Shown here piece by piece: positions 16,169-46,647 of a stretch of DNA of 64,000 nt. Numbering within the stretch: position 1 is the stretch's first letter; every line of letters starts with the position of its first letter. The notes beneath the pieces were generated by a model. The model saw only the letters and a list, made by a program, of their open reading frames with translations. It was not told the origin of the DNA and did no database searches. The DNA is taken from positions 37,295 to 101,294 of the forward strand of contig CAKZLH010000165.1 in NCBI GenBank assembly GCA_937125285.1, read 5' to 3'. Both the position numbers and the translations under genes were made by a program. The DNA comes from an uncultured Balneolaceae bacterium. GTDB lineage: Bacteria > Bacteroidota > Rhodothermia > Balneolales > Balneolaceae.

Positions 16169-16240
16169 TCCTCGGTAGCTCAGTGGCAGAGCAATCGGCT
16201 GTTAACCGATCGGTCGTTGGTTCGAATCCAACCCGGGGAG
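16169..16240 (+). tRNA. tRNA-Asn (anticodon GTT)
   Basis: Hand-folded cloverleaf: acceptor TCCTCGG/CCGGGGA (one G-U pair), D arm GCTCAGTGGCAGAGC, anticodon loop CTGTTAA, T arm GTTGGTTCGAATCCAAC, discriminator G; CCA is not encoded. Confidence 0.9.
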
Positions 16241-16404
16241 CTTCAAAAGCCTCAGATCTATGATCCGGGGCTTTTTTCGTTTAGGCCGATCAACGACCGA
16301 TCGGATCGGTCGTTTGGTTCTGCCGAAGGCATCCCTTTGGGAGAATCCAACCCGGGGAGCCAGGCCTATCAAAGATGCGAACATTCACAGTGTTCGCATT
16401 TTTT
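16233..16404. repeat. left 172-bp direct repeat (attL-like)
   Basis: Checked base by base against 46276-46447. Contains the last 8 nt of the tRNA, hairpin + T-run 16248-16278, a degenerate tRNA-Asn 3' half at 16296-16359 and hairpin + T-run 16377-16404. Confidence 0.9.
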
Positions 16405-17990
16405 ATTTCATCCCATTGTGCCTCTAATCGCTTGTCAGCGAGGTATTTTATATTGATTGTCCCATCGTTAGTTTTTTGGTTAACAAAAGTTTCGACGTTT
16501 TTGACCAAAACTTTCGTTAATTCTCTTCTCATTCCAATATCGCTGTCATTGTACTTAGTAATGAATTCATTCAACAATTTCTTGTGAGCTGTTTTGCCAA
16601 TTGGCTTTCTGAGCTTTAATTGTTCAAGCTGATTTTTTAAAAATTCTATCTCGTTTTCTTTTTCTTCAATATTAAGGATTATGGATTCCAACTGGGAGGC
16701 ATAAGTTTCCTTAAGTGTAGAACTAGCATTATCGGTTACAAGCTTAAGTGTGTTAGTCTTATCCTTCAGAAGAGACTTAAGTGTCTGCTGGATACGTTTG
16801 ATTCTAGATTCAAGTTCTTGAATTTGATCCTCACCTTCAAATTTGAGTCGCTTACGCATGGCTTCCATTAGCTCAGGCGCTTTCAACAAGCATTGTATCG
16901 TTTCTATTACAAAATCATCTAGTATGGTAACAGAAAGATCTTTTGGATTATGTTCTTCTGTACTTCCCATTTTGTTCTTCTCAGAGCATTTATAGTAGTA
17001 GTATTTTTGTTTAGCTCGGTTTGTAGTACTAGAGATAGTCATACCGCCTGCACAAAAACCACATGTACAAATACCTGTAAGTATAGCAGGGGTAGCACTT
17101 TTGATCGGCTGGTGCTTATTTGGATTTACATTATTCGCCTGTAAGAGCTTTTGAACTTGATCAAAAGTTTCCTGTTCAATAATTGAATCATGTATCCCTT
17201 TATAAATAGTGCCATCTATTTCGTATTGACCAATATATAAGCGCGAGTTTAATACACTCAAAATAGAACTGACATTGAATTTTCCACCACCTTTAGCTTT
17301 TCCTTTTCTTGATACATACGATTTATTACGAAAGCCTTCCGCATTAAGAGCTTTCGCAACATCTCTAGATGATTTCAGCTTCAAGTAGCGATAAAATATT
17401 TCCTTAACTAGGATTGATTCTTCTTCATTGATGATCAGTTTTCGATCGACGATATCGTATCCTAATCGAGGAGTACCTCCTGGCCAGAATCCTTGTTTTA
17501 CGGTTTCGATTCTTTTTTCTCGTGTTCGCTCTGAAACCATTTCCCTCTCAAATTCAGCAAAAACCAGTAGCATTCGCTGTAGCGCTTTACCAGCTGCGCT
17601 TGAGGTATCAATTTCCTGTGTTACGGCAGCAATATCTACTTCATATTCTTCTAATCGTTCAAAGAAATTCAAGAAGTCTTTGAGGCTCCGTGATACACGG
17701 TCAATTTTAGTAACTACCAGCAAGTCGAACTTTCCTGCTTTTGCGTCTTTTAGTAAGCGCTCTATACCTGGTCGTTTTAGGTCTTTTCCAGACTTGGTAT
17801 CCCTGTATACTTCACTAACCTTTATATGTGGTGAGCCTGGAGTCGTTATTTGATTTCTTTGCTCAATCCATGTTCTGCATTGATTCTCCTGACCATTCAG
17901 GGAGCTAAATTCATTATCAGACTGTTCGACGGTTGAAACCCTGATATAGATTGCGGCTTTGAGAGTTTGCTTTTTCTTCTTTTTTGCCAT
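16290..17990 (-). CDS. large serine recombinase (integrase)
   Basis: 566 aa; N-terminal resolvase domain AAIYIRVSTVEQ, recombinase domain, Cys cluster CTCGFCAGGM...YYYYKCS, coiled-coil tail; the last ~38 codons lie inside the direct repeat. Confidence 0.9.
   Translation of the reverse strand: MAKKKKKQTLKAAIYIRVSTVEQSDNEFSSLNGQENQCRTWIEQRNQITTPGSPHIKVSEVYRDTKSGKDLKRPGIERLLKDAKAGKFDLLVVTKIDRVSRSLKDFLNFFERLEEYEVDIAAVTQEIDTSSAAGKALQRMLLVFAEFEREMVSERTREKRIETVKQGFWPGGTPRLGYDIVDRKLIINEEESILVKEIFYRYLKLKSSRDVAKALNAEGFRNKSYVSRKGKAKGGGKFNVSSILSVLNSRLYIGQYEIDGTIYKGIHDSIIEQETFDQVQKLLQANNVNPNKHQPIKSATPAILTGICTCGFCAGGMTISSTTNRAKQKYYYYKCSEKNKMGSTEEHNPKDLSVTILDDFVIETIQCLLKAPELMEAMRKRLKFEGEDQIQELESRIKRIQQTLKSLLKDKTNTLKLVTDNASSTLKETYASQLESIILNIEEKENEIEFLKNQLEQLKLRKPIGKTAHKKLLNEFITKYNDSDIGMRRELTKVLVKNVETFVNQKTNDGTINIKYLADKRLEAQWDEIKNANTVNVRIFDRPGSPGWILPKGCLRQNQTTDPIGR
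16296..16359 (+). pseudogene. degenerate copy of the tRNA-Asn 3' half with a T-loop insertion
   Basis: ACCGATCGG..ATCGGTCGTTTGGTTC[TGCCGAAGGCATCCCTTTGGGAG]AATCCAACCCGGGGAG compared with the tRNA CCGATCGGTCGTTGGTTCGAATCCAACCCGGGGAG; no 5' half; a second copy lies at 46339-46402. Confidence 0.7.
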
Positions 17991-30209: not shown

Positions 30210-30229
30210 CACTTTAAGCTGACTCACTC

Positions 30230-31534
30230 ATGTTAAAAATATTCAAAGGGGTAGAAAGATTACATGTAATTAAGGCCTCTGAAATTCTAAAGCAAAAGGA
30301 TATAGTAATAAGTCCCAGACAACAGTACTGGGTAAGAATGCCAGATGGCAATGAGTGGCCCTATAAAGAACTTGTAAGAGAATCGGTCTACCAAGCAACT
30401 AAAATTATACTAGGAGATGAATTTCAGAGCAATGAAACCAATAGATCGAAATTTGAGAGTCTATACGACCTTGAAATCGTAGATTATAAGAAGCTTCCAT
30501 CTGTTGAATACTTATGTGAAAGGCTTAAAAGTAATTTCAAGAATATTTGGAGATGTGCGGATTCTGCTAAATGGTATATCCTTAAAAACACAAACCTGTT
30601 TACGTTTGATTGGTTTGATTCTGAAGTAAACTACTTAGGTAAAAGAAAGGAGAAAATAGGAAAAGGTAAAATGTCTATATATCCGTGGGTAAATGAACTG
30701 AGGATAGGTGATCTTATTTTCGTAATGAGTAAAAATCATTATTTCGGGACAGCCATAGCTAGATCAGAGTATAATTGGAGAGGCCCATTATTAGACATTG
30801 GTGGGGGGCGCAAGAAACCCGCTATTAAAGTAGAATATTTACATAAGTTAGATCAGCCAATTCTTCATGAGTTGAAGACCCATAATAGGCCAACCACATT
30901 TGCTAACATAGAGCACTATAGTTTTGGGTTATACAATACTCTTAGTTTTTTGAAAGACAGATTGCCGGGTGTATATGAGTCATTGAATGTTGTTGTTCAG
31001 GAAGTTGAGTACCCATCAAAAGTGCCAAGTGAAGCACTGGAATATATTGGGCAATCTAATCCTCCATCGTCTATTATAAGTTTTATATCAGATTCTCCAA
31101 GTTTTAAGGCTAACGAAGTCGACTACGAGAAAGAACATAGAAGAAATAAAGAAAAAGGAGATTTTGGAGAACGATACTTCGAATCATTGATTGAAAAGAA
31201 CCCAGATTTAATCGAGTTAGGTAGTCCTATTGCGAATATAGAAAAACAGAAGGATGGGGTTGGATATGATTATATGGTGAACACAGAAGATGGCAACCTG
31301 TACTATATTGAAATCAAATCTACTACTAGTTCAGCAAGTACTCCATTTTATATGTCTCATAATGAGAGGTCTTTTATGAAACAAGAATGCGAGAATTATA
31401 GGCTGATTAGATTCTACGATCTAAAACAAAAAAGAAGAGAAGGGTCATTTTTTGTACTAACTGCTAATGAGTTAAAATCAGGAGAATTCGATTTCAAGCC
31501 TACTAATTTTGAGATTTCCAGAACATTAAGTTGA
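30230..31534 (+). CDS. DUF3883-type PD-(D/E)xK nuclease-fold protein with N-terminal putative reader domains
   Basis: 434 aa; C-terminal GDFGERYFE...GVGYDYMV...YYIEIKST...FYMSHNERSF...YRLIRFY matches the DUF3883 pattern as recalled; the N-terminal domains were not identified. Confidence 0.55.
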   Translation: MLKIFKGVERLHVIKASEILKQKDIVISPRQQYWVRMPDGNEWPYKELVRESVYQATKIILGDEFQSNETNRSKFESLYDLEIVDYKKLPSVEYLCERLKSNFKNIWRCADSAKWYILKNTNLFTFDWFDSEVNYLGKRKEKIGKGKMSIYPWVNELRIGDLIFVMSKNHYFGTAIARSEYNWRGPLLDIGGGRKKPAIKVEYLHKLDQPILHELKTHNRPTTFANIEHYSFGLYNTLSFLKDRLPGVYESLNVVVQEVEYPSKVPSEALEYIGQSNPPSSIISFISDSPSFKANEVDYEKEHRRNKEKGDFGERYFESLIEKNPDLIELGSPIANIEKQKDGVGYDYMVNTEDGNLYYIEIKSTTSSASTPFYMSHNERSFMKQECENYRLIRFYDLKQKRREGSFFVLTANELKSGEFDFKPTNFEISRTLS

Positions 31535-31606
31535 GTGGCCGTAACTTAATTGTCAGGATCTATTATCTGAAATAGTCATGTTTACTAATCTGAATGCTCA
31601 AAAATG

Positions 31607-32062
31607 TTATTTCTTTTCAACAACCACCAGATCTCCACAAGCTGTCCACTTTTTAAAAATGTAGTTGTCATCATAATGCTGGTGAGGGATAGTTTTCAAG
31701 TTTATTATTCCATTAGCCCCTTTTAAGAAGGCATTGAATTTGAGTTCCCATATTGCTTTCTCAAAATCATCGTGTTCGAATATCGTTTCGAGATAAAAAA
31801 GATTTTCAACTATTCTGTGCTTCCCAATATGGTTGCTACGAACTGCAATAATTGAGTCAACTTTTTTTTCGCGTTCAATATTGCATTCATTACACAAATC
31901 CATTGGTTTTGAATATCCTGAATCATCCATATTTGCTTGATAAGTCTGGATTCTGTGGTCGCTACAGAGGTGGCCTCCGCAATCTGCACACCAATGGTCA
32001 CCAACTGGAATTAACCAAAGCCATTTATCTCTAGAGTCATTATTGCAGTATTTACATTTCAT
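31607..32062 (-). CDS. zinc-ribbon protein with a YbjQ/UPF0145-like C-terminal domain
   Basis: 151 aa; CKYCN...CADCGGHLCSDH...CNEC Cys clusters; C-terminal FLKGANGIINLK resembles the YbjQ signature. Confidence 0.4.
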   Translation of the reverse strand: MKCKYCNNDSRDKWLWLIPVGDHWCADCGGHLCSDHRIQTYQANMDDSGYSKPMDLCNECNIEREKKVDSIIAVRSNHIGKHRIVENLFYLETIFEHDDFEKAIWELKFNAFLKGANGIINLKTIPHQHYDDNYIFKKWTACGDLVVVEKK

Positions 32063-32157
32063 ACGTAGTATTTAAGATTAATATATAAAAATTAATTAGA
32101 TGAATCCGTTTTTTAAAAACACTTTAAAAGAGAAAGCTGGGCTTTCTCTTAATAATC

Positions 32158-32673
32158 TCACATATCTTTGAATTCTGGTTCCAATTTAAATTTGTACCTC
32201 ATTGTCTTGGAGTACCTGTCATAATGTCCCCAATAAAGATTGTCAAGACTTACGCTACCAGGAATCCTATACCCAATTCTTAATGGTTCTGTTTTAGCAT
32301 TGGGTTGAACAAAGCGAGCATTTTCTCCATTGGTAGGGGCATATAAGTTTCCGTCATCTGTAACTAAGTATTTATTACGGTATTCAAAGAAGTATTCTGC
32401 AGGTTCATTTTCCAGATTCATAGCTTGCCACATTACAAGTATTAAGTGATCGTTACCCTGAGTGTCGTAGACGCTAACTACTTGAATTGAGTCACTTCTA
32501 GTAATCCATTCACCTGAGTAATAAGAATATTCAAAAAATGTCCATGTATTCTCTTTTCCAACTTCTTCTTTATTCGAACACGACACCAAAAGAAGTACGA
32601 TGCTTATAAATAGAAATAGAATTATAGTTAGCTGCTTTATTTTGAGATAGTAGTTGGGGTTGATTGTATTCAT
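32158..32673 (-). CDS. hypothetical lipoprotein
   Basis: 171 aa; lipobox LLLVSCSN. Confidence 0.5.
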   Translation of the reverse strand: MNTINPNYYLKIKQLTIILFLFISIVLLLVSCSNKEEVGKENTWTFFEYSYYSGEWITRSDSIQVVSVYDTQGNDHLILVMWQAMNLENEPAEYFFEYRNKYLVTDDGNLYAPTNGENARFVQPNAKTEPLRIGYRIPGSVSLDNLYWGHYDRYSKTMRYKFKLEPEFKDM

Positions 32674-32706
32674 GTTGATGTCTTTTGGTTATTTATAGTA
32701 TGCAAT

Positions 32707-32726
32707 ATCCATACCATAGTATGGAT
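32707..32726. promoter_or_regulatory. palindromic operator candidate ATCCATAC-N4-GTATGGAT
   Basis: Perfect 8-bp arms in the divergent region between the lipoprotein gene and the XRE gene. Confidence 0.45.
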
Positions 32727-32757
32727 AGTCAAGATTATATTTCCTGCATGTTCCTCC

Positions 32758-33000
32758 ATGCATACAAAGGAAGAAATACAAGAAGCTTTATCTGTTGTGA
32801 TAAAGCGCGAACGAGATCAGAGAGGTTTATCTCAGTTCGATTTAGCTGTCGGCAGTGATCTGCACAGAACAATGATTGAGTTCATCGAGCGTAGAAAGCG
32901 AATGCCAACAATACATTCATTTTTAAAGATTGCTGAGGCGTTGGAAGTTTCACCAAGCTACCTCATGCAAGAGCTTGAAAGCGAGTTAGGTAAGAAATAA
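32758..33000 (+). CDS. XRE-family helix-turn-helix transcriptional regulator
   Basis: 80 aa; RGLSQFDLAVGSDLHRTMIEFIERRKRMPTIHSFLKIAEAL is a typical Cro/CI-type HTH. Confidence 0.8.
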   Translation: MHTKEEIQEALSVVIKRERDQRGLSQFDLAVGSDLHRTMIEFIERRKRMPTIHSFLKIAEALEVSPSYLMQELESELGKK

Positions 33001-33004
33001 AAAA

Positions 33005-33020
33005 GAAGCCCGAAGGCTTC
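33005..33020. terminator. shared hairpin terminator between convergent genes
   Basis: GAAGCC-CGAA-GGCTTC; on the minus strand it is followed by TTTTTTATTT, immediately after the TGA of the 33023..33538 gene. Confidence 0.6.
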
Positions 33021-33022
33021 TC

Positions 33023-33538
33023 TCAACTAGTCACACCATTCGCTGAAAACTCTTCAGCGGGTTTATAATCCGGGCGATCTATAACCCGAATATACTCTCC
33101 GGAAGGTTTTAGCGCAAAGTAAGAGACTTCGCCAGTATTGGGATCTTTGAAAGGTATAATACTTTCTATATTTGCGTATGTACGCTCATCTGTCTCATTA
33201 TGCACAAGGAATAAGGTGGCACTCATCCCTACGAAATGCTCAAGATTGATCCCATCATGAAGCTCCTTTGGCGAGTATTTTTCACCTCGCCACTTCTCCA
33301 GGAATTTGCGAAGGGAAGCTTTTTCGTTCAGGCTTTTAGTGAACCGTTTTCCAACTACAAAACACTTACCGTTTTCATCGGTAGATTCAAGCTCGAACAT
33401 CAAGCTTACTTTTTCTTTAGAACCCCAAGGGGTTTCGACCCGTCCAATGGAAATTGCGTCTACGCACACCCCATGGTGTAAGCCTTCATCCGGAATTGGA
33501 TATTGGGAAGGATCTTCGATAATTATTAAATCAGACAT
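33023..33538 (-). CDS. phage-type protein, DUF669-like (possible ssDNA-binding partner of the exonuclease)
   Basis: 171 aa directly downstream of the YqaJ gene; family recalled from overall pattern only; ends in TGA-G followed by a terminator hairpin. Confidence 0.35.
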   Translation of the reverse strand: MSDLIIIEDPSQYPIPDEGLHHGVCVDAISIGRVETPWGSKEKVSLMFELESTDENGKCFVVGKRFTKSLNEKASLRKFLEKWRGEKYSPKELHDGINLEHFVGMSATLFLVHNETDERTYANIESIIPFKDPNTGEVSYFALKPSGEYIRVIDRPDYKPAEEFSANGVTS

Positions 33539-33553
33539 TTCTGCCTCCAGTAG

Positions 33554-34522
33554 TTAATTGACGGTAAACCGTCGAGTTGTTATTTGGTTTAAGAATTGTT
33601 TGTAAAGCTCAGGGTGGGCCTTTTTGAAAGCTGGAGTATTCAACCGGTTTTGAGTCGAGCTTTTCCAGCTTATAAGTTTCTTACCGACGCATACCAGCTG
33701 TTCAGAATCTCCAAGATCCTGTTTGAGCTTTATGCGAAGGTGCTCTTCCATTCTTTCCAGATCGGAAATTCGATCTCTTACTTCTTTTAGCTCGGTGTAA
33801 TAGCCATAGGCTTTAGGAGTGGCCTCAAGCGTTTTATTCTCCATGCTATCAGGGTAGAGTAAAAGCATATCATCATCAGAGGTTGGTTCAGGTGGAATAT
33901 CCGCAATGATATGCCGGTTCCACCATGCCACTGCTTTTTCAAAGAGCTCATCAATTAGCTCTTGATTGCGTTGGATAAGAATTGGCTCATGAAAGATGCC
34001 AGTGTCTCTTTCCATAATGGCGAGGTACGCATAGGAGTAACCTGTCAGAAACATGTACCACTGAATCTGATACTCCCAGCTTAAGGGATACAGGTTTTCC
34101 TCACTTTTAAGGCGCATTGAACTTGTTGACTTTATTTCGAGGACACCGGGAGAACCATGAAGCTCAGAGGAAATGATTTGCCGATCTATATTTCCACGTA
34201 GGAAACTAAAATCCGGATGTTCATACGCCTCAGAGATATTGCGGACTTTCAGGCCAGTGGTCTGACAGAATTTTTCTGCAATCACAGGTTCCAAAATATG
34301 TCCGAGTTCAGTAATCGGCGTTGAACCTTGCGGTTCTATTCTTCCAGTTTTAATCAGCCAAAGCTGTAGCGGTGTTTGGTACTTTGATTTCCCAAAGGCA
34401 GCGGCAAGCTCGCTTCCTCCCAAATATTGTATTCGAGCGTGAACCCATTCTTTAGAAGGGATGTTGTCTAACAGTTTTGTCATAGGATATAGATTGAGAT
34501 TAGTAGAAATAGAAAAGGCCAC
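33554..34522 (-). CDS. YqaJ-like viral recombinase-domain exonuclease
   Basis: 322 aa; GGSELAAAFGKSKYQTPLQLWLIKTGR and later PD-(D/E)xK-like blocks (GNIDRQI, LEIKST). Confidence 0.8.
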   Translation of the reverse strand: MAFSISTNLNLYPMTKLLDNIPSKEWVHARIQYLGGSELAAAFGKSKYQTPLQLWLIKTGRIEPQGSTPITELGHILEPVIAEKFCQTTGLKVRNISEAYEHPDFSFLRGNIDRQIISSELHGSPGVLEIKSTSSMRLKSEENLYPLSWEYQIQWYMFLTGYSYAYLAIMERDTGIFHEPILIQRNQELIDELFEKAVAWWNRHIIADIPPEPTSDDDMLLLYPDSMENKTLEATPKAYGYYTELKEVRDRISDLERMEEHLRIKLKQDLGDSEQLVCVGKKLISWKSSTQNRLNTPAFKKAHPELYKQFLNQITTRRFTVN

Positions 34523-34525
34523 AGA

Positions 34526-34648
34526 TTATTCTGAAGCCTTTTCGGATTGGTTTTCTTTAGGTGGAGGAGGTGGAGGTGGTAGAAAGAATTTTAGAAGTTC
34601 TTTCACAAGCTCCGCGCTAGCATTAATTAGCTCTGTAGGATCGTTCAT
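34526..34648 (-). CDS. possible 40-aa micro-ORF with a poly-proline run
   Basis: MNDPTELINASAELVKELLKFFLPPPPPPPKENQSEKASE; not in the ORF track; the Pro run is encoded by the GGTGGAGG tandem repeat, so it may be non-coding. Confidence 0.2.
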   Translation of the reverse strand: MNDPTELINASAELVKELLKFFLPPPPPPPKENQSEKASE

Positions 34649-34703
34649 GATTTGTTACCAGTAATTATGATTATGATTACCTTAACTATCAGTTTGGGAA
34701 TGC

Positions 34704-35522
34704 TCATAGCGCAAACACCTTACTCACGTTTTCTTGATAACGAGCTTGTAGGTGAGGTTCCATCTCGTGGCTAATGTGATTGGTTAACCTGTTGAGCAGC
34801 CTCCATTGAGTGATGCGTCCAATTTCTTCTTCTTGAATGCATTGCTCAGCCAGGCGCTTAGAGATCTTGGTACTTACGTTCTCTACGAGTTGTTCATCTA
34901 CCCGTAGTAGCTCAAGGCGATTGATACGCTCTTGAATCTCCGGGAAGAAGGAACGTGCTTCGGCTAGCTTTTCACCTAAATCATCAAATGAGAATCCTTT
35001 GGTGTGACGAGAATAGTATTTACTAAGCACCGTCCCGAATACCATTCCGTTTGAGCAAATTGCTCGGATAGCTCCAAAATAAAAACGAATTCCTTCGCTC
35101 TGGTCGTAGGAGTTATGAATGAAGGCGGACAAGGCAATGTCTGACTCGCGATCACGAAGCCGAAGCTCTGGAAAGGTAATCTGTAGTCGCATACGCTCAT
35201 TGGTTACAAAGGAATGTGAGGCATCCACTTTAAAGCTTTGCCCGCAGGTTGCAAGTTGGCGCAGAAGCGCATCAATGAGCTCAGAGTTGGTCACGATTTT
35301 GTAAGTGTCGCGTACTATGGAAATGACCTCGTTCGTGTCTTCCCGAACAATGGCTTTATAACCATTGGACAGAAAGGTATCAGGGTTTTCCAGATTGATA
35401 ATGGGAGACTGAAAATCGTCGACAGCGACTTTTCGCTCAACCACCGGAAAGCAGAAAGGTTGAAGATTCATTAGAATTGGGTTAAGAGTTAATGGGATTA
35501 TTCCCATTGTTCTTATACCCAA
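34704..35522 (-). CDS. DUF932-domain protein (phage/ICE-associated)
   Basis: 272 aa; hallmark FIHNSYDQSEGIRFYFGAIRAICSNGMVFG. Confidence 0.7.
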   Translation of the reverse strand: MGIRTMGIIPLTLNPILMNLQPFCFPVVERKVAVDDFQSPIINLENPDTFLSNGYKAIVREDTNEVISIVRDTYKIVTNSELIDALLRQLATCGQSFKVDASHSFVTNERMRLQITFPELRLRDRESDIALSAFIHNSYDQSEGIRFYFGAIRAICSNGMVFGTVLSKYYSRHTKGFSFDDLGEKLAEARSFFPEIQERINRLELLRVDEQLVENVSTKISKRLAEQCIQEEEIGRITQWRLLNRLTNHISHEMEPHLQARYQENVSKVFAL

Positions 35523-35625
35523 ATATGCCTCAGAATGATGTCAAAGTTATCTTAGAGCATCATTAATTCGTAGTTAAACAGTTAATCAATCACATACCTT
35601 GTAGTGGATTTAAAAGCTCAAGTGC

Positions 35626-35835
35626 TTACTTAATACCTTGAACTTTCATTCTAGCTCGGTGACCAGCTACATACCCTAAGTTTTCAAGTTGTTCATACTC
35701 CAAGATTAAAACCTGCGAATCTCCTATAAACACTGGCTCATACCATTGATGTGCTGAGCGGTAAAAGTTTCCAGGATCATTCACTTCAATGGTTGCGGTT
35801 TGTCCGGGATCAGGCTCTATGGTATAGTCATCCAT
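35626..35835 (-). CDS. hypothetical protein
   Basis: 69-aa ORF on the module strand; ends in TAA. Confidence 0.35.
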   Translation of the reverse strand: MDDYTIEPDPGQTATIEVNDPGNFYRSAHQWYEPVFIGDSQVLILEYEQLENLGYVAGHRARMKVQGIK

Positions 35836-35954
35836 TTTTTAAAGAAAAGATAGAATCGGATAATGTCAGCTTACGTCACCGTACTTTGGGGAATTTGGTA
35901 TAAGAATGGTGAAGGCCATTACGCTTTCACTACTCATAACTAACCTTATTAGCC

Positions 35955-36407
35955 ATGCATACTGTCTCTGAAGTCTCCCTCAAATACCAAACTCAAACAT
36001 CTTTCGAAGAAAAGCCCGTAATAAGTTCACCGGAACAAGCTCACCGGTTTCTCAAGAAAATCTGGGATTCAGATACTATTGAGCTCCGAGAAGAATTTGT
36101 TATTGTCTTATTGAACCATTCCAAAAAAGTGCTTGGGTGGAGTAAAGTTTCGACAGGAGGGCCATTTGCTACTATCGTACATCCAACTACGGTATTCCAA
36201 CTCATACTCTTAGGTAATGCTGCAAGTGTGATTTTGGCTCACAATCATCCTTCTGGAACTTTAAAACCGAGCCTAGCTGATATTGAGCTAACTAAACGCT
36301 TGTCGAAGGCTGGAAAGCTGTTTTCAATTGGCGTAGACGATCACTTAATTCTAACACGCGATAATTATCTATCCTTTCGGGAAGAGGGGTTAATGAAAGA
36401 GGGGTAA
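35955..36407 (+). CDS. radC: RadC-like JAB/MPN domain protein
   Basis: 150 aa; JAMM motif ILAHNHPSGTLKPSLADIELTKRL. Confidence 0.85.
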   Translation: MHTVSEVSLKYQTQTSFEEKPVISSPEQAHRFLKKIWDSDTIELREEFVIVLLNHSKKVLGWSKVSTGGPFATIVHPTTVFQLILLGNAASVILAHNHPSGTLKPSLADIELTKRLSKAGKLFSIGVDDHLILTRDNYLSFREEGLMKEG

Positions 36408-36540
36408 CTCTCTTTTTTTTAGATTATTAATCGCCTATAGGGAGACGAAAAAAAATTGGGAAAAAAATTTTCGGAATCCGTTTTTCAAATCAAAAAGGCT
36501 TTTTTCTGAATGAGGGTTTAATGCTTGGAATCTGGGTAGA

Positions 36541-36567
36541 TTGCCGGGAGTATGGGACCCGGCAATT
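36541..36567. terminator. stem-loop between the convergent radC-like and TGA-containing genes
   Basis: TTGCCGGG-N11-CCCGGCAA (8-bp GC-rich stem); no clear T-run. Confidence 0.35.
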
Positions 36568-36632
36568 ACCTCAAAAATGATATTAATTCGAATTTAGTGT
36601 CCCACCAGAAAGTGTTTAATCCGATTGATTAG

Positions 36633-37157
36633 CTAGCTATCTGCTTGCTCCTTAAGGTACAGGCTGTAGGCTTCTTCAATTTTTCGAAAGTGGCGCTCAA
36701 CATACCTTCCGGATTTATCTTCCTTCAAAACTTGTTTAAGCTCCTCTGGTGTGGTGATTCAATCTTTTGTTTTTTCATTATCAATCCAGTGAAAAATCTC
36801 CCGGCAGTACATACGATCCGCATTTTCTATGACTCATCCCATAAAAGTCCCTTTTTTTCTCATTATATAGATTGCTTTTCTGATTTCACGAGGGGTGGAG
36901 GAGCCAGGTTGAAGTCCGAAATCTAACGTTGGGTAGTTTCAAGGCGAAGTTCTTCCACGCAACACGGCCTCCATAATATTTGGGCAATTTGTTGCCGGAC
37001 GTTTTCAATCATTTCATTCTGCAATACGCCGAATCAGTATGATTGAAGTGTTAAATTTGCTCGCAGTTGCACGATGGCCGTGTTTCATTCAATATGCTTT
37101 GATGTCTTTCTCTTTGTGTTCCTTAAAAAGATCTGCTTTTCTTTTAATCTTTATCAT
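36633..37157 (-). CDS. 174-aa basic protein with six in-frame TGA codons (read as Trp); possible HTH protein
   Basis: 525 nt = 175 codons from ATG 37157 (AGGAGA 7 nt upstream) to TAG 36633-36635; TGA at 37089-91, 37014-16, 37005-07, 36939-41, 36834-36 and 36759-61; no TAA/TAG in frame; missing from the ORF track. Confidence 0.6.
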
Positions 37158-37554
37158 TGTTTATTCTCCTTTTAAATTAATGGGGTGGGGGAAGTCCGAT
37201 TTTCATCCCAAAACATTTGAATTTTGTTTTGAGAAGAATTTCAACTCTTTTGAAGCGATTTTGCCTCTCCTCCACCCCGGTTGTTGTTTTTTATTAGCCA
37301 AACAAAGGTTTATCCTGTGTGTCTGGTGGGTATGAAAGCTTACGTTCTACTTTATAGCGGTACATTCCTTTGAGCAATCTCCTTGGAAATCCATGTTTTA
37401 CTAGGAGTTTGCCTAAATACGCAGCGTTTGTTCCTTTTTGAACCCAATTTCGATCACGCATATCTTGTAATAGTTCAGAACTAGTCATTTCTTGCGTGCT
37501 TGCTCCACCCCGGTGCCCAGGCGTATAATGAAGTAAAAGCATTTCCTCCACCCC
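36892..37554. repeat. cluster of G-rich GGGGTGGAG(GAG) motifs, iteron-like (candidate ori)
   Basis: GGGGTGGAGGAG at 36892-36903 (+) and 37267-37278 (-); GGGGTGGAG at 37503-37511 (-) and 37546-37554 (-); variant GGGGTGGGGG at 37182-37191 (+); an AT-rich spacer at 37192-37266 lies between two inverted copies. Confidence 0.5.
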
Positions 37555-39330
37555 GCTTATATGAGCGTACCTGATATTATGAGCATTAATTCGTTGAATT
37601 TCTTCCCCCTCGAACCAGTACTGAAAACCGGAACGATAGAGTCCATACACCTGTGCCCAAAATAGTGTTCAGTCGATAGGAGTTTTGTAATCAATTTCGG
37701 TTACTGTATGAATGAGCATTCTTCGGCTTCCACTCACGTCAGAAATGAGCTGTTCCATGTTTGTGGAGCTTGCAAAACTAGCCCTTCGAACCATGGTTTG
37801 AGCAAACCGGCCATACGGTCTGCGCACCTTAATGCTTTGTAGGGTAATAAGTTCTTTTAACTCCGCTTCTTTTGTCCTATTAATTCCGTCTAATTCATTA
37901 ATGATTACTAGAATATTCTCTGCTAAGTTAATGATAGAATCCTTGTCTAACGGGTTCACCACCGTTGACACCACATACTCCGAAAGTGGTTGAAGCAGGT
38001 TGTATAGGAACGTACTCTTACCAATGCCCTGGCCGCCGACTAAAACTAGCATTGTTTGGTTTACCACCTTAGGGTTAACTGCTCCCGCTACCAGGCCAAC
38101 CATTCATTTCATAAATGTGAAGCGGAAATAATCCGGATCATCGGAAGTTACTGTAGCTATAAGTTTATCAATTTCCGAAGTGCCGTCCTCCTTTGGAAGA
38201 CTTTTAAAAAAGTGTACAAAGGGATCAAAGGAAGGGCAAAAGTCAGAAGTTATCAAACTGTGTAAGGCTCCCTCTCCCAGTGTGCCTCTTTGGTTTCGAA
38301 GGTGGCGTAGAATAGTAGCAAAGCCCCGATCATCGAGTAGCTGCCAGTCAGAGACTCCACGTTTGCGCCATTCCACCATTCCTCGCACTTCATTGTAGCG
38401 AAATCCATAATGAAACTGCAAAAACCCTTCCGTTTCTCCTTTATGTCGTACAAACCTGGTAAGTAAGACTTTTTCAATCGTCATTTGTCCATAGGTTGCT
38501 CCATCATGTCGATGCCCAGTATCCCATTTTTTTCTGAATAACTTAGAAGCGCGAATGATTCGATCTATAGCAGCCTCATCAAATCCCACAACATTAGCCA
38601 CTAAAGTAGTCAACCGTAAATCGGCCTTAGACTGATCACCACCATATCGACCAAGATCTCCATAAAGGAACAATGCCCGGAATTCAGCGCCATGTTTTTC
38701 ATCGCGTTCTAAACGTTCAATATTTCGTTCGTCTTTTTTTGTAAGAATGGCGGTAGTGGGACTGCAGCCTTGAGCAGTCTTGCTACCTGAATGGCCCAAC
38801 ATAGGAAGTATGGTTAACCACTTATCATTTTCAAATTTACGAAGTGGGGTAGGTGTTTCACTCCAAATCTCTCCTGTGATGGTTACGTACCGGCTATGTT
38901 CATAAATTTCGATCCCTTTTGTTCCATTCATACTGAAACGATTACTCATGCCTAGAGGCATTTGCCCATTGATCATAATACGGATTCCTTGGCCGCTGGG
39001 TGAAATTTCTGTATAGGAATCAAACGTTTTAATGAGTTGCTGGGTGGCATCTGAGATGTGGCCATCTTGAATGCATCCATCAATGTCAATAGCTACAAAA
39101 GGATCAGCATTGGTAAGTACAAACCCAACTCCGCTAAAGAACGAAGGTTGTTGGTTGTAGGCCTCGATTACATTGGTAAATGTAGTTCAGGTCGCTGGAT
39201 TGGTTACACTTGCATATGATCTGTTTGTCTGACGGGGCACTTTTGTTGCTTTGCCGTCTCTTTGTTCCAGTGTTCAGTTCACCCACTGGTCGGTGTTCGT
39301 TAGTTCATTAGGAATATGGTTATCTATCAT
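37294..39330 (-). CDS. Prim-Pol (AEP) primase fused to a VirE/D5-type P-loop NTPase, with four in-frame TGA codons (read as Trp)
   Basis: 2037 nt = 679 codons in a single frame with no TAA/TAG; TGA at 39274-76, 39187-89, 38104-06 and 37669-71; motifs FVAIDIDGC, YTEISPSGQG, LVLVGGQGIGKSTF; the ORF track splits it into 3 ORFs and misses the N-terminus. Confidence 0.75.
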
Positions 39331-39466
39331 CTTCTCTTAACCTCTATATTTTGATTTTATTTTTTGGACGTGTACATGTATTACATCCCTTTATTAATTC
39401 TATTCATTGTTAGAGGATTTGTCAAATTCTAGGTGGAAAAATTTCAATCTTTTTTTAACATAAGGC

Positions 39467-40039
39467 ATGAGTAATCCATATCAAGACTTTTTTAGCCGGA
39501 ATAATCTCCAAATGAACAAGCCCGGTAAAACATTAGTTGATGTATTAGACTGGCTGGAAGCGTCTGATCTTATGAGGGAGGGAGGATTGGATACTATTCA
39601 GTCAATGCTGCATGAGGTACACCAGTTTTCTTTTAAAACACCGGCAGAGTTTGTTGGGATGATCCGGATTTATCTACATGTGTTCCATCGTTTTCCACTT
39701 CATACAGGGCTGCGTATAAGCTACTTTAGCCTATGGCAGGATTTTTTGGATAGGTATTATACCGAGTTATCCATAGCCTCTATAAAGGCAGCACAATATA
39801 TATTGGAGCATCAAGTGAGGTATCTTCAAGTGTATTGTGATGGATACGATGCACTTCGTGTTACTTGTGAAGGGCTAGTCTACCGGATTCAAGCCCTCAC
39901 TGATCCAGTGCGAAAAACTATTCCCGAAGTAGATAATATAGATGTTCAGTCGGTAAAAGAAGTTTACCAAGTTAATCTTTCCGATCAGGAAGCTCTGGAT
40001 GTGGCAAGCCAGCAAATTTTATACAACCTTCGAAAATAG
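39467..40039 (+). CDS. hypothetical protein
   Basis: 190-aa ORF divergent from the primase operon; ends in TAG. Confidence 0.45.
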   Translation: MSNPYQDFFSRNNLQMNKPGKTLVDVLDWLEASDLMREGGLDTIQSMLHEVHQFSFKTPAEFVGMIRIYLHVFHRFPLHTGLRISYFSLWQDFLDRYYTELSIASIKAAQYILEHQVRYLQVYCDGYDALRVTCEGLVYRIQALTDPVRKTIPEVDNIDVQSVKEVYQVNLSDQEALDVASQQILYNLRK

Positions 40040-40094
40040 GCGAATATATTTAGATGGGTTAGAGAGTTAGATTCAGTGCATACGTGTTATAAGA

Positions 40095-42356
40095 CTACTT
40101 TTTGGTAAACCAATATCTAAATGGTTGATGCATTATAGTTAGATTTAGAGGAATTCCTACTCCACTCATACTTTGTTTACCTTTTTCGTCTTTCGGTAAA
40201 TGAGGGAAATGATGGCTTTCACTCTTAATGGTACCTAATGTTCTAAACCACTTATATAATTGGGTGTTATTTGGATAATATTCCTGCAATGGGGTATTTT
40301 TCCAAATATCTTTTGGAAACCAGCAGAAATTGCCGTCAATTACATAAGCATCAAAAGTAGAGTCATTAGACCAGTCCTTAAGCATTTTAGCAAAAGCTCG
40401 TTGCTCTTTCATACTGTGTGCTAAAGAGTAGTTCCAAATACTATCCAAACCGAACAAGATTTCTTGTTCCACTTTTGAAATGCCCCCAGCCATTTCGTCG
40501 ATAATCTTTCCTATCACGATAAGGGGCTTAGCCAATTGAAATTTTCGGTTGTCCAGTTTTTTACCGGATATCGGCATTTGAATATCAGTGGGGATCGATC
40601 CAATGGTATTTAGGATAATCTGGGTATGTAAAAGTGGAAGAGCAAGTGCTGAAGTTCTTATTAATTCTTGCTGATGTTCTACTTGTCGGTCAAACTCCAT
40701 AAACCCATCGAGTTGAATCTGTTTTGGTTTTTCCTCAGTGGGTATGGGGATTGTTCTAGAGGAAAGAGTATCCAGGTTTATTCCCCCAGTTCCACCAAAA
40801 GCTTTTGGAGAGTAGGTATGAAGTGTCTGAGAGGATTTCCCAGCTTTTTTAGTATATGTTCCTTTGTAGTTATAGCCACCGTTTAAAAATCGGGAAAGAT
40901 CATCATGAGTATTTTTAGAGGAAGAAAAATCCTCGAATTCATCAACGCACAATGTGGAAGAACTCAAATCAACAAGTTCTGTCATTGCCGCAACAGTAGC
41001 TTTTGTTTTGACTTCCCCGTTAAAAGAAAGAGCAGCAATAACATCAAGAATGGTGGTTTTTCCACTTCCTTTAATTCCTTGGAAATGTAAGTAGGGATAA
41101 GCGGGAAATGCTTTGTAAAAATAAGTTCCAAGAATCCATGCAGTAAGAACCGAATACCATGAATCTTCTTTGAGGTATATGTAACGCTTTATGAAATCCA
41201 GAGTGGATGTAAACAATTCATCAAATGGAACAATGCGTTCTTCCTGGATCCTTTGAATAATATCTGGTGTACAGACTGTACGAAATGGCTCAAAATGTCG
41301 GAATTCAACAAATTCAAAAGCCTTCAGATCGTTAACCGAGAGAATACGAAAAGGATTAGATATCGCCACCGAGTCTGCATCACCAATCTGAAAGAAAAAC
41401 CTATTTCCCTGAATATCTTGGGCGGGGTCAATTTCTGGAATCCTTTGAGAACGAGCAGCATTATATGCTTTTTTAGAAGGGATATCTCCAGGAATCAGGG
41501 AATGGGAGAATTTTCTGATTCTGTTTTCAAAAGCCTCAATCCCATATTTAGCCAAGAAATCCTCGGCTTTTTGTTTACCAAAAGCGCCTGCTGAATTGAT
41601 TCGATATACAGAAATGCCAGCCTTAAGACAAAGCTCTGCAAACGGATAGATAGAATAATCAAAAGTGACTCCTTCATGATCTGCAAGTAGGTAAACATCT
41701 GTTTCAGAAAGCAAATCAGAGTAATTGAAATGGGAAAGTTCATTTTGACTTGGCAGAGAGAGGGCCTTTATACCTTGCTCATTGAAATAATCGGCCACTA
41801 AAGGATCCCAGGTTACCAATACCGAGGTAGGATTTTGTTGGAGAATATTTGGATGAATTCGTTGTACCCCATAGGATTCCCATTGTATTCCTATTTCATT
41901 AATAACGACATCTCGGGTAGCAATGCAGTATCCTGCCGAAGACAAACAATGGTAACGTAGAATATTATCCGAAGCATCTCCTTCTTTCCACACTCTCATT
42001 GACTTATATCCGTCTATCAAGTTAGCATGGTTGGAGGGGGTGTCACAAAAGTCAGCTACTCTTGTAAAGCTTGTTTCATAAGTTTCAGCAACCGCTAATC
42101 CATCAGGTTCAGTTATTCCATATATGAGATCTAAAAGCTCAGATACTGGTGTAAGTTTATTATCTACTTCGATATAGTCCTTTTGATATCGTAAAGAACG
42201 CTTATTGCCAAAACGATCAATAAAATTCAGGTCAATGGGATACTCTTCAAGAAAATAGGCCTCCTGATCAAAGTCAGGAAAAGTAATACGTACAAATTCA
42301 CCTTGTTTCTGAGTGGAGAGGAGCTTTTTATGTGCCTTTTTGAAATTAATACCCAT
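40095..42356 (-). CDS. Toprim-like + DUF3631-like P-loop protein
   Basis: 753 aa; Toprim-like DVYLLADHEGVTFDY...GISVYRI...AEDFLAKYG; Walker A GIKGSGKTT, Walker B LCVDEFED, then LNGGYNYKG...SPKAFGG...LSSRTIPIP as in DUF3631. Confidence 0.55.
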   Translation of the reverse strand: MGINFKKAHKKLLSTQKQGEFVRITFPDFDQEAYFLEEYPIDLNFIDRFGNKRSLRYQKDYIEVDNKLTPVSELLDLIYGITEPDGLAVAETYETSFTRVADFCDTPSNHANLIDGYKSMRVWKEGDASDNILRYHCLSSAGYCIATRDVVINEIGIQWESYGVQRIHPNILQQNPTSVLVTWDPLVADYFNEQGIKALSLPSQNELSHFNYSDLLSETDVYLLADHEGVTFDYSIYPFAELCLKAGISVYRINSAGAFGKQKAEDFLAKYGIEAFENRIRKFSHSLIPGDIPSKKAYNAARSQRIPEIDPAQDIQGNRFFFQIGDADSVAISNPFRILSVNDLKAFEFVEFRHFEPFRTVCTPDIIQRIQEERIVPFDELFTSTLDFIKRYIYLKEDSWYSVLTAWILGTYFYKAFPAYPYLHFQGIKGSGKTTILDVIAALSFNGEVKTKATVAAMTELVDLSSSTLCVDEFEDFSSSKNTHDDLSRFLNGGYNYKGTYTKKAGKSSQTLHTYSPKAFGGTGGINLDTLSSRTIPIPTEEKPKQIQLDGFMEFDRQVEHQQELIRTSALALPLLHTQIILNTIGSIPTDIQMPISGKKLDNRKFQLAKPLIVIGKIIDEMAGGISKVEQEILFGLDSIWNYSLAHSMKEQRAFAKMLKDWSNDSTFDAYVIDGNFCWFPKDIWKNTPLQEYYPNNTQLYKWFRTLGTIKSESHHFPHLPKDEKGKQSMSGVGIPLNLTIMHQPFRYWFTKK

Positions 42357-44523
42357 GAGGCTTCTCCAGTAGGTTGGTAATTATTTCATCGGTGAGGGGA
42401 TCTCCATCTTTAGTGTGGACACGTAAATATCTTAGCAGTTGTTGGAAGAACCCAGTGACTTCTGCTTGAGAATATGGACGGTCGGGATGCGCAAAATGAG
42501 CTACTACTAGTTCGACAGTCTTTTCACCTACCGTATTTTTAATGGAGCTTAATAGCCCGGAAAACTGGGTTCGATACCCTTCCTCATCAGGGTATGTGAC
42601 TTCGACATGAAGTCCAAAACGGCCAGTACGTTTTAAAGCTGGATCAATGTCTTCAAATAAATTGGTAGCAGCCATGCATAGTACACCTTCATTGTCATTT
42701 GCACCACTCAACTGGGTAAGCATAGCATTTATAGCATCATTTTGGTGAGCTTCAGCACTTGCTTGTCTATTACCCAAGCTATCGATTTCATCAAAGAATA
42801 AAAGAATGGGACGAAATAGCCTTGCCTTTTCAAAGAGTGAGGCAATATTCTTGCTTGTATCTCCAACATACTTAGATTTGAGTTCTCCAAGATTGACTTC
42901 CATAAACAATACATTGAGTTCATTAGCAATCGCATTTGCCAGAGAGGTTTTACCTGTTCCCGGTTTTCCATGTAGCAAAATTCCATTAGCCTGAATCTCG
43001 GGTAGATCTTGACGGTATATTTCAGGTTGTATCGAAAATAGGAGTTCTTGCTTTAGTTGGTTATAGATCTTTTCGGCCCCATATAGTTCATCAATAGTAA
43101 GAGTGGGTATCGTAATGTTAAGCTCCAGTTCACACAACGGAGTAACTGATTTTAAAGCTTCCTCAAAGTCCGAGGATATGATAAATGAGGAAGTTTCAGT
43201 TGAAGTTTGTTTAATACGATGTCGTTGATGTGCGACAACTTTTTCGATAAAGGTCTTAATATCTGCTCCTACAAAGCCAATTATACGATTGGAGAGGTCT
43301 TTCAAATACTGGTGTGTAATCTGACTAGTATCTACTTGTAGCTTTTTAACTAGAGAACCAATTATCTCAAATCTGCCAGTAGAATCGGGTGGGGGAACGG
43401 CAATTTTCGTGTCAAAACGACCGGAACGAAGTACAGCAGTATCTAACTCGGATATATAGTTAGTTGCAGCAATGACCAAAACATGGGGTGCACGTTTTTG
43501 GGGGTCGAGTTCTTGCAGTAAAGTATTTACATTTTCCTTGTCGTGGGTGCTCATACCGGAGCGATGCCCGGCTATGGCATCAATTTCATCGATAAAAAGA
43601 ATTGCTCCCTGAGAATAAGAAGCAGCTTCTTGAAATTTCTCTGCGATTTTTAGTGAGGTTTCATGAACATAAGGAGAGCCTATGCCTTCCAAGTCCATTC
43701 GAACTAAAGGAAGATCCAAATCATGGGCGATAGCTTTTGCAAGCTGAGTTTTACCTGTTCCAGGAGGACCGTACAAAAGGACACCACCTACTGGAGTTGG
43801 ATCGGAGTATAATTGTTGATTAAGAAAGTCGCTGAAAGGATGAATAACCTCAATAAGAAGACGTTCAATAACAGTATCTATTCCCTTAAGCTCATTTAGT
43901 GAGCTTTTGGAAAAAGGTCTCCGGGATCTTAAAGGAGGATAACTGGTTAGCTGTGGATCATTGATTGGATTAACCACAGACTCTAAGGAACCTGATTCTT
44001 CTGATTTTTCCGACTTATTGTCTTTGTTTGATTCTGAAGGTCGAGGCAGATAATTCCGTTTGATTTCAGTGTTGTATGTAAGAATACCGGCTTCCATTTT
44101 GGGTGAAATCTTACTTACTTCAAACACAAGCCCTTCTACATAAACCTTTTGATTTTTGAATACGATAACCTTGTCGTCTATCTCATGGGTGATGAGAGGA
44201 AATTCCGGATCATCATCATTTTCATCTCCTTCGGTTTTTATTTCTTGTAGGGAAACCTTGTTAATAAATGAGAGGCTCGGAAAAGAAAGAAATCCGTATT
44301 CTTTATCATCACAATAAAGTTTGCTCCATGAGTCATCAACGATTACGACTTCTTGTTGATGGTACTTGGCATGTACAGGTGCAATTCGCCCCTCTATGTG
44401 TTTGTCGGTTTCCCATTCTATTCTACATTCACGGCCATACTTAGCTTGAGACTGTATAATGAGTCTTGGGCTTACCCCAATTCCTTCAAAACCGGGAACA
44501 TAAATGATTCGGACTTTTTGCAT
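42346..44523 (-). CDS. CDC48/VCP-like tandem AAA+ ATPase
   Basis: 725 aa; two AAA modules (LLYGPPGTGKTQLA...ILFIDEID and LLHGKPGTGKTSLA...LLFFDEID) after a ~190-aa N-domain and an acidic/Ser-rich linker; overlaps the downstream gene by 11 nt. Confidence 0.8.
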   Translation of the reverse strand: MQKVRIIYVPGFEGIGVSPRLIIQSQAKYGRECRIEWETDKHIEGRIAPVHAKYHQQEVVIVDDSWSKLYCDDKEYGFLSFPSLSFINKVSLQEIKTEGDENDDDPEFPLITHEIDDKVIVFKNQKVYVEGLVFEVSKISPKMEAGILTYNTEIKRNYLPRPSESNKDNKSEKSEESGSLESVVNPINDPQLTSYPPLRSRRPFSKSSLNELKGIDTVIERLLIEVIHPFSDFLNQQLYSDPTPVGGVLLYGPPGTGKTQLAKAIAHDLDLPLVRMDLEGIGSPYVHETSLKIAEKFQEAASYSQGAILFIDEIDAIAGHRSGMSTHDKENVNTLLQELDPQKRAPHVLVIAATNYISELDTAVLRSGRFDTKIAVPPPDSTGRFEIIGSLVKKLQVDTSQITHQYLKDLSNRIIGFVGADIKTFIEKVVAHQRHRIKQTSTETSSFIISSDFEEALKSVTPLCELELNITIPTLTIDELYGAEKIYNQLKQELLFSIQPEIYRQDLPEIQANGILLHGKPGTGKTSLANAIANELNVLFMEVNLGELKSKYVGDTSKNIASLFEKARLFRPILLFFDEIDSLGNRQASAEAHQNDAINAMLTQLSGANDNEGVLCMAATNLFEDIDPALKRTGRFGLHVEVTYPDEEGYRTQFSGLLSSIKNTVGEKTVELVVAHFAHPDRPYSQAEVTGFFQQLLRYLRVHTKDGDPLTDEIITNLLEKPHGY

Positions 44524-44725
44524 GGCCGCAACCTATATGTTGTTATTGTGATTTATGTGACCGTAGGGGAAAAATCGTGCCAATTAAGAACTCAAGTTTA
44601 TTTTAAGCTACATCAGAGTCCTTTTTTGAAAATATCATTCAATATAATGCAAGCTAGTGTAGTACTGCCATTTCTTCAGGCTCTATCATAACAAAAATGA
44701 GCTTAAGCCTTCAAACCTAATAATT

Positions 44726-46264: not shown

Positions 46265-46275
46265 GTTTGCAACTG

Positions 46276-46447
46276 CCGGGGAGCTTCAAAAGCCTCAGAT
46301 CTATGATCCGGGGCTTTTTTCGTTTAGGCCGATCAACGACCGATCGGATCGGTCGTTTGGTTCTGCCGAAGGCATCCCTTTGGGAGAATCCAACCCGGGG
46401 AGCCAGGCCTATCAAAGATGCGAACATTCACAGTGTTCGCATTTTTT
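46276..46447. repeat. right 172-bp direct repeat (attR-like)
   Basis: Identical to 16233-16404; the flank differs immediately outside both ends (aactg|ccgggg versus ccaac|ccgggg; tttttt|ttt versus tttttt|att). Confidence 0.9.
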
Positions 46448-46614
46448 TTTTGAAGTTGAATCATTACGCCTTTCATAGAGTCAATCCTTGAAAAATCGGT
46501 CATAATCATGATCATTTTCAAATAAGCTTCCTCAGACTCATAGCATAAAAGGGGAGTGTTTGCTGGATTATCTCTCCAATGTTGCCTAACACGTTAAAAG
46601 AGTATACTTTATTT

Positions 46615-46628: not shown

Positions 46629-46647
46629 CTAATCTATACCCATCATT

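Follow-up and report, generated by a model that had tools for sequence, protein, structure and literature searches.

An integrative island in an uncultured Balneolaceae bacterium has two adjacent genes, here called g1 and g2, that belong to its putative replication module and carry ten TGA codons within otherwise open reading frames. Sequence comparisons make it very probable that these are sense codons for tryptophan (Trp), kept as such by selection. The genes lie in a stretch of 64,000 nucleotides (nt), the whole of which was analysed and is termed the window below. A first-pass annotation had described both frames; on re-reading the sequence we found the coordinates, the ten TGA codons, the use of TGG by both genes and the AGGAGA box in front of g2 as it had given them.

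37294..39330, minus strand: g1, replicase of 678 amino acids (aa); four in-frame TGA, nine TGG, TAA end
36633..37157, minus strand: g2, Trp-rich partner gene of 174 aa; six in-frame TGA, one TGG, TAG end

Counting its terminator, the g1 frame has 679 codons, with no TAG and no other TAA, and its TGA codons fall at 39274-76, 39187-89, 38104-06 and 37669-71 (codons 19, 48, 409 and 554). The g2 frame has 175 codons counting the TAG stop, with TGA at 37089-91, 37014-16, 37005-07, 36939-41, 36834-36 and 36759-61 (codons 23, 48, 51, 73, 108 and 133); the AGGAGA box stands 7 nt 5′ of its ATG. The base directly 3′ of the TGA is A in nine of the ten cases. At ∼40% G+C, TAA and TAG together are expected at ∼0.045 per codon, and by our own arithmetic a frame of 679 codons without either has a probability of ∼1e-14, so the open frame of g1 is not a chance event.

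For family searches both genes were translated with TGA read as Trp. The g1 product scored above the Pfam cut-offs for the NrS-1 polymerase HBD (PF22763, 49.5 bits, cut-off 27.9), the VapE-like domain (PF05272, 128.3 bits, cut-off 25) and DUF5906 (PF19263, 41.8 bits, cut-off 27.6). It also bears the motifs DIDGC (DxD), SPSGQG (the SPSGxG primase motif) and GGQGIGKST (Walker A, GxGKS), and in all these respects it resembles NrS-1-type prim-pol/VapE-D5 replicases. Judged by its domains and motifs, g1 is an AEP primase-polymerase (prim-pol) with an NrS-1-type HBD, fused to a VapE/D5-like P-loop helicase, which bears out the earlier assignment to Prim-Pol and VirE/D5-type P-loop families. Unlike in other NrS-1/VapE-type replicases, the Walker B Asp of the helicase domain is Asn (VIINELD, codon 478, about 37897-37899) in the window and in three of the related copies introduced below (L001, L029 and L002); L003 (LDEL) and more distant homologues have DE at this position. 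Despite the Asn, g1 is under purifying selection. The g2 product had no match in Pfam, PHROG or NCBIfam; by eye, its N-terminal half looks like a helix-turn-helix. The predicted fold of the g2 homologue P0121, taken as a single chain, was unusable (pLDDT 41).

The Balneolaceae host of the window uses the standard code. Among the 47 other open reading frames (ORFs) of the window, 16 stop at TGA and none has an internal TGA, against 307 TGG codons; one of those stopping at TGA, ORF 635-994, encodes a complete ArsC-family protein of full domain length. Even three genes of the g1/g2 module itself stop at TGA, namely the DUF932 gene (34704-35522), the rep-init gene of the NGO0469 family (33023-33538) and the gene at 32158-32673. 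Homologues are present in L002 for all three and in L003 for two, and they retain the TGA stop, save the rep-init gene of L003, which ends in TAA or TAG. TGA is thus used in the window as a terminator and, outside g1 and g2, never as an internal codon, as the first-pass annotation had said, and a whole-organism genetic code 4, one of the options it had raised, is excluded for the window.

The Trp identity of the TGA columns was assessed by alignment with homologues. For g1, 19 homologues were used, each at most 37% identical to it. Column 19 is Trp in 11 of 12 of them, column 48 in 11 of 14 and column 409 in 15 of 18, and column 554 has no Trp outside its own lineage. In the g2 family, Trp occupies column 23 in 10/10, column 51 in 12/12, column 108 in 9/10 and column 133 in 8/12 sequences; at columns 48 and 73 it is confined to the lineage of g2. 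The initial proposal that all ten TGA codons stand at Trp-like positions therefore holds for seven of them (g1 19, 48 and 409; g2 23, 51, 108 and 133), where homologues have a conserved Trp, whereas the remaining three are Trp only within their lineage. The alignment also confirmed two conserved features of these families that the first-pass annotation had named, W-x-W near the N-terminus and K-W before Walker A.

Related copies carry the same codons. When one genome per species was scanned, three copies turned up in Balneolaceae (L001, L002 and L003), to which a metagenome copy, L029, is added here. In L001, a complete chromosome (OZ245822.1), g1 differs by 28 nt and has the identical four TGA codons; the four g1 TGA codons of L029 are likewise identical to those of the window. 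The g1 of L002 (Balneola sp.; 88% protein identity) has TGA at 19, 48 and 554, TGG at 409, and an extra TGA at the Trp equal to window codon 329. In L003, g1 is an intact frame of 672 codons that is 43% identical and carries TGA where the window has codons 19, 48 and 409, and a g2 analogue in the same position, at 25% identity, has three TGA codons that align with g2 columns 23, 51 and 133. The TGA-bearing frames are intact in six copies, and no other stop or frameshift occurs in copies down to 43% (g1) and 25% (g2) identity. Because identical TGA codons recur across independent assemblies, they are not sequencing errors.

The comparison of TGG and TGA in related islands that the first-pass annotation had suggested shows both states at four Trp columns. 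In addition to g1 W329 and W409, noted above, TGG replaces TGA at g2 W133 in L029 and at g2 W73 in L052, a Logan contig. Comparing the window with L002 gives a ratio of non-synonymous to synonymous substitution rates (dN/dS) of 0.11 in g1 and 0.21 in g2; for the separate segments of g1 between and after its TGA codons it is 0.04-0.15, the same range as the scorable neighbour genes (0.09-0.12). The dS of g1, 0.59, is within that of the flanking genes (0.46-3.0). Between the window and L003 the state of the codon, TGA or TGG, is retained at 12 of 12 shared Trp columns, whereas the A/G third base is retained at 25 of 44 Lys/Glu/Gln columns (p = 0.005). Going by the low dN/dS and the interchange, Trp is written with either TGA or TGG, and selection maintains the proteins over their full length. 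The view put forward from the start, that g1 and g2 alone in the window have TGA decoded as Trp, is supported by selection, by TGA columns conserved in deeply diverged copies and by the interchange of TGA with TGG.

Three other readings of the codons were considered. Selenocysteine was rejected, since the columns are Trp and no SECIS-type Rfam match appears in 31-47 kb at E <= 1. Termination followed by re-initiation could be imagined at the TGA-ATG junctions at g1 codon 409 and g2 codon 23; it was rejected because g1 TGA 19 and 48 precede the catalytic DxD and are not followed by a start codon, and residues at the N-terminus are conserved. As to A-to-I editing of the mRNA, the target A of TadA needs a UACG-like loop, and the A of these TGA codons follows G.

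The trait recurs in other replication modules. Unlike g1, some 45 more distant prim-pol relatives outside its Balneolaceae clade, from genomes, viral contigs and metagenomes, have TGG at both N-terminal Trp, in a sample where the metagenome scan patterns contained W and were biased toward TGG and against TGA copies. No close relative of g1 was present in the protein collection searched. A g2 homologue used as query in a full HMMER search gave 18 representatives, and in every contig fetched for them the g2-like gene has in-frame TGA at Trp positions. The g2-like genes adjoin replicases of other families that share the trait, among them non-homologous ones: L053 has an AEP/helicase-like gene with three TGA codons, and L057 has a PriCT-type primase with five plus a VapE helicase with one. 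The DUF932, YqaJ, rep-init, orf750-like and RadC genes on those contigs have no in-frame TGA.

Taken together, 15 TGA-bearing genes contain 43 TGA and 52 TGG codons, with one to six TGA codons per gene between lineages. All 14 that are complete end in TAA or TAG, against a background of 26-34% TGA stops; if the genes are taken as independent, the probability of finding no TGA terminator among 14 is ∼0.003-0.016. T is the next base after 3 of the 43 in-frame TGA codons and, among true TGA terminators, after 6 of 19 (p = 0.019), and a purine follows 36 of the 43. Where a TGA-bearing gene was translated from its start codon, the first TGA nearly always falls among codons 1 to ∼50. These statistics of stop choice, following base and codon state speak for selection acting on the stops as such and for a regime where TGA does not terminate.

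Such modules are systematically mis-annotated or missed, appearing under standard annotation as fragments or pseudogenes. Most stored g2-like proteins exist only because the gene caller chose code 4, and it is only where it did so that g2-like genes appear in the protein collection; the practical consequence is that annotation passes over these modules. The public calls for the short contigs L052 and L056-L061 (from Logan, JGI and ENA) used code 4 and place W at the TGA positions. On the longer contig L053, annotated under the standard code, the replicase is split into pieces of 48, 189 and 490 aa, while the g2 call begins at an internal Met.

The module is part of an island whose boundaries could be mapped. 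Its ends and three of its genes are as follows.

16233..16408, plus strand: left direct repeat of 176 nt (tRNA-Asn 3′ end and downstream sequence), left island boundary
46276..46451, plus strand: right direct repeat of 176 nt, right boundary of the 30,043-bp island
16290..17990, minus strand: large serine recombinase (Pfam Resolvase, Recombinase, Zn_ribbon_recom); TGA stop, no in-frame TGA
35955..36407, plus strand: RadC-like JAB-domain gene (Pfam PF04002), convergent with g2; no in-frame TGA
40095..42356, minus strand: P-loop protein of no known family, 753 aa; no in-frame TGA, TAG end

The two copies of the repeat are 99% identical, start inside the tRNA-Asn 3′ end and enclose 30,043 bp. A contig from another sample (L087) has matching flank genes, in the order TonB-dependent receptor, tRNA-Asn, LacI regulator, and a single copy of the repeat at 9629-9804, that is, an empty site. 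The 30,043-bp stretch at tRNA-Asn is a mobile insertion. Within the 176-nt repeat lies a second, degenerate fragment of the tRNA-Asn 3′ end (GAATCCAACCCGGGGAGC), which suggests earlier integrations at the site. The 10 kb past the right end of the window hold sugar-utilisation genes only.

Besides g1 and g2 the island carries a YqaJ exonuclease gene and the DUF932, rep-init and RadC genes already named; no virion or structural gene was found among its genes in Pfam, PHROG and NCBIfam scans. RadC is adjacent in L053-L055 as well. The 753-aa P-loop protein accompanies the g1-g2 module in every context: a 27% identical relative lies directly upstream of g1 in L001 (7435-9687), and L053 has a homologous C-terminal half. 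In the window it adjoins a 725-aa double-AAA ATPase (the two span 40095-44523) whose hits to PADLOC IetA models are strong (E = 4e-63), and from these neighbours its role could be in replication or as one of a defence pair. Defence cargo occupies 18196-31534, with a type I restriction-modification system (hsdS, hsdM, a second hsdS and hsdR) among whose genes lie one with a SAVED domain, an SMODS/AGS-C cyclase, a pair of SLATT plus SMODS and a NOV_C-domain gene showing PDC-S36/TmtA-like matches; the embedded SAVED/SMODS genes are CBASS-like. In L002 the SAVED/cyclase pair directly adjoins the replication module.

A 3.5-kb cassette of g1, g2 and radC (35952-39441) is 97% identical to L001 9890-13372, and the flanks in L001 are unrelated. 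Such identity amid unrelated flanks implies that the replication module moves between islands as a unit. The L001 cassette sits in a stretch of ∼8 kb between housekeeping genes, together with a tyrosine integrase and the 27% relative of the 753-aa protein; no flanking repeat was found around this stretch. The window, L002, L029 and L003 have common synteny around the module.

No decoder for the UGA codons was found on the island. In agreement with the first reading of the window, ARAGORN and Rfam identify no suppressor tRNA there and give tRNA-Asn only; Rfam, which was run on the window alone at the gathering threshold and additionally at E <= 1 over 31000-47000, gave no tRNA(UCA). On the related loci L001-L003, L029 and L052-L058 ARAGORN found no tRNA. 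Relaxed ARAGORN settings returned only noise, with nothing common between loci, and a non-canonical tRNA on board was rejected on that result and the empty Rfam search at E <= 1. The element encodes no release factor or TrpRS that we could find.

An outside source was sought in sequence collections. No close relative was found for g1, g2, YqaJ and orf750 in IMG/VR, for g1 and g2 among GenBank phages, or for g2 and the cassette in PLSDB, so the suggestion of a segment imported from a TGA-recoded phage gained no evidence. A scan of IMG/VR yielded 22 contigs with a tRNA(UCA) having a Trp-like anticodon arm, and tblastx showed no similarity between these contigs and the islands. A tRNA(UCA) at 5798-5873 of IMGVR_UViG_3300021254_000224 (L069) matches the Fodinibius tRNA-Trp at 62 of 73 positions, with D-arm and anticodon arm identical except for the anticodon.

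We lean, with modest confidence, to the interpretation that the UGA codons of g1 and g2 gate the replication of the island at the level of translation, and that a decoder supplied in trans reads them as Trp conditionally; both parts, the gate and the supply in trans, are what we infer from the sequences. The primase-polymerase/helicase g1 and its small partner g2 would form the replication module of the island. With normal RF2 termination the ribosome would halt at g1 codon 19 and g2 codon 23, and the integrated island would then make essentially no replicase. Only efficient decoding of UGA would give full-length g1 and g2. The decoder would most likely be a tRNA(UCA) or an equivalent acting in trans, coming for example from a TGA-recoded phage or other element in the cell, and a weakened RF2 may help it. 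The UGA codons would be retained by selection for gating. A narrower version, which we put forward tentatively and with more doubt than conviction, has the island sense infection via the genetic code: the replicase would be translatable only once a TGA-recoded (code-4) phage brings tRNA(UCA), and arrival of the suppressor would switch on replication of the defence-loaded island or satellite as the phage alters decoding.

Several points weigh against a trans-acting gate. The searches above tied no helper phage, tRNA(UCA) or RF2 inhibitor to the islands; the decoder search covered the window and related loci, and the host tRNA-Trp locus lies outside the window. Known recoded phages recode mostly late genes and have the suppressor on board (bioRxiv 10.1101/2021.08.26.457843). 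The stop-choice, following-base and codon-state statistics come from small samples that are partly non-independent. Lastly, a tRNA-Trp(CCA) whose anticodon stem has 4 bp is known from three Balneolaceae species, so leaky decoding by the host itself remains a candidate. The host's own tRNA-Trp(CCA), for instance this variant, would then read UGA in weak-termination contexts, and the one to six leaky stops would serve as multiplicative attenuators giving a constant trace of replicase with no external trigger. We consider this unlikely, but it deserves serious attention. Fakih et al. reported that tRNA-Trp(CCA) having an anticodon stem of 4 bp (G27/A43 unpaired) raises UGA readthrough in Escherichia coli, and their Suppl. 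Table 5 includes Fodinibius salinus and F. halophilus among the three Balneolaceae that carry it (PMC13092985). The purine that usually follows the in-frame TGA, the rarity of T there, the variation in TGA number between lineages, which would fit tuning, and the lack of a suppressor on any of the copies searched all suit this explanation. The only boost measured for such a variant in E. coli was however ∼2.5-fold over background, with overexpression (PMC13092985), and over four to six serial leaky stops this would leave almost no protein, which calls for an efficient decoder; with six such events in a row hardly any g2 product would be made, although purifying selection acts on g2. Moreover, 26-34% of host genes still stop at TGA, and mere leakiness would not demand that TGA-bearing genes avoid TGA terminators altogether. 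It is for the number of serial stops, their early position, this avoidance and the conservation of codon state that we prefer the gate in trans.

Two further explanations take the island copies to be non-functional. The cassette might work only in an unseen code-4 phage or plasmid with its own suppressor, with inert island copies re-imported from it and the signal of selection derived from that reservoir and not from the chromosomal copies. The recent horizontal movement implied by the 97% identical cassette in two unrelated islands would fit, as would the separate ‘code compartment’ formed by the TGA-bearing genes and the existence of environmental phages with tRNA(UCA), the L069 backbone being near the Balneolaceae tRNA-Trp. 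We nevertheless hold it improbable, because g1, g2 and their neighbours have no close relative in the phage and plasmid collections, tblastx did not link tRNA(UCA) phage contigs to the islands, and all copies with enough flank are chromosomal or island-like, without structural genes; the synteny of the window, L002, L029 and L003 and a g1 dS within the range of its flanks fit divergence in place. Alternatively the genes might be dead, the ten TGA codons being nonsense mutations of TGG such as a cytosine deaminase acting at 5′-TC on the opposite strand would leave. All ten do correspond to G-to-A changes at Trp codons, nine of them in GA context, and the Walker B Asp-to-Asn replacement in g1 is also a change of the GA-to-AA type. 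The atypical decay that the first-pass annotation had kept open as its second reading is nonetheless refuted, and we give it hardly any weight: dN/dS is low in both genes and downstream of each TGA, the copies contain no TAA, TAG or frameshift, neighbour genes are untouched and the trait recurs in unrelated replicase families. An origin of the TGA codons by deaminase or other hypermutation was ruled out by dN/dS, by the TGA columns kept in deeply diverged copies and by TGA/TGG changes that run both ways.

TGA-recoded phages and prophages of standard-code hosts were reportedly described by Ivanova et al. in 2014. Like these, the island is a mobile element in a standard-code bacterium with in-frame TGA at Trp in some genes only, its recoded genes end in TAA or TAG, and its integrase or recombinase is free of in-frame stops. 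Unlike them it lacks genes for capsid, tail, terminase and lysis, and no suppressor tRNA, release factor or TrpRS was found on it; only two genes are recoded, while neighbours in the same module stop at TGA, and these two are the replicase and its partner, whereas the phages recode late genes and often spare replication genes. For the phages, stop codons have been proposed to partition expression between life-cycle states (bioRxiv 10.1101/2021.08.26.457843).

The island can also be compared with phage satellites (PICI, P4-like, PICMI), which are small integrative islands built on an integrase and a primase-helicase. Shared features are an integrase or recombinase with an attachment-site repeat at a tRNA gene, absence from some strains, and an own prim-pol/helicase replicase with adjacent iterons (whose origin function is putative) and no virion genes. 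Further shared features are a copy, in L001, that is a minimal island of ∼8 kb, and defence cargo in the 30-kb version. Unlike in those satellites, a helper phage, packaging or capsid-redirection genes and a repressor/derepression module were not identified in the island. To our knowledge, control of a satellite replicase through in-frame stop codons has not previously been described, and our literature search found no paper on such recoding in islands or satellites without a tRNA.

Reading of UGA as Trp by tRNA-Trp(CCA) is familiar from the Hirsh G24A suppressor, at low level from Bacillus subtilis, and from the A1 readthrough protein of Q-beta. The present genes share with these the reading of UGA as Trp without a whole-code change and a dependence on the following base. 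In those cases, however, either a single stop leaks or the codon is reassigned across the genome, unlike the four and six serial UGA codons found here in essential domains at conserved positions.

Stop-codon recoding in standard-code hosts has been known from phages whose late genes are recoded and which supply the suppressor tRNA themselves. What appears to be new here is a family of non-phage integrative islands that recode only replication initiators and have long kept the stops at fixed Trp positions, with no decoder found on board. If the decoder is derived from phage, satellites and defence islands would have a novel type of trigger; if, further, the island senses infection, the trigger would be based on tRNA and not on protein, and the island would be the first element to parasitise the code change of another. 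If the decoder is instead the host tRNA-Trp, the islands would be natural evidence for physiological UGA reading by a 4-bp-stem tRNA-Trp in a standard-code bacterium.

Two non-coding stretches beside g2 contain candidate sites for the start of replication.

37158..37293, minus strand: g1-g2 spacer, with one iteron CGGGGTGGAGGA and an inverted copy CCCCCACCCC
36408..36632, no strand assigned: conserved non-coding stretch between g2 and radC, with hairpin TTGCCGGG-N9-CCCGGCAA and long A/T tracts

Two further CGGGGTGGAGGA iterons lie inside the 3′ end of g1 (37496-37515 and 37539-37558), making three direct and one inverted in 37263-37558, and such iterons occur also in L001 and L002. Those of the g1-g2 spacer are probably an origin or replicase-binding sites, to judge from their arrangement. 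The g2-radC stretch is conserved at the nucleotide level in L003, L029 and L052 and includes an AT-rich tract at 36430-36490; it is possibly a terminator combined with an AT-rich unwinding region. At the equivalent place L003 has different iterons, ACCGTATGG (12020-12190), and the iteron/AT-rich region is a probable origin whose specificity would co-vary with the replicase.

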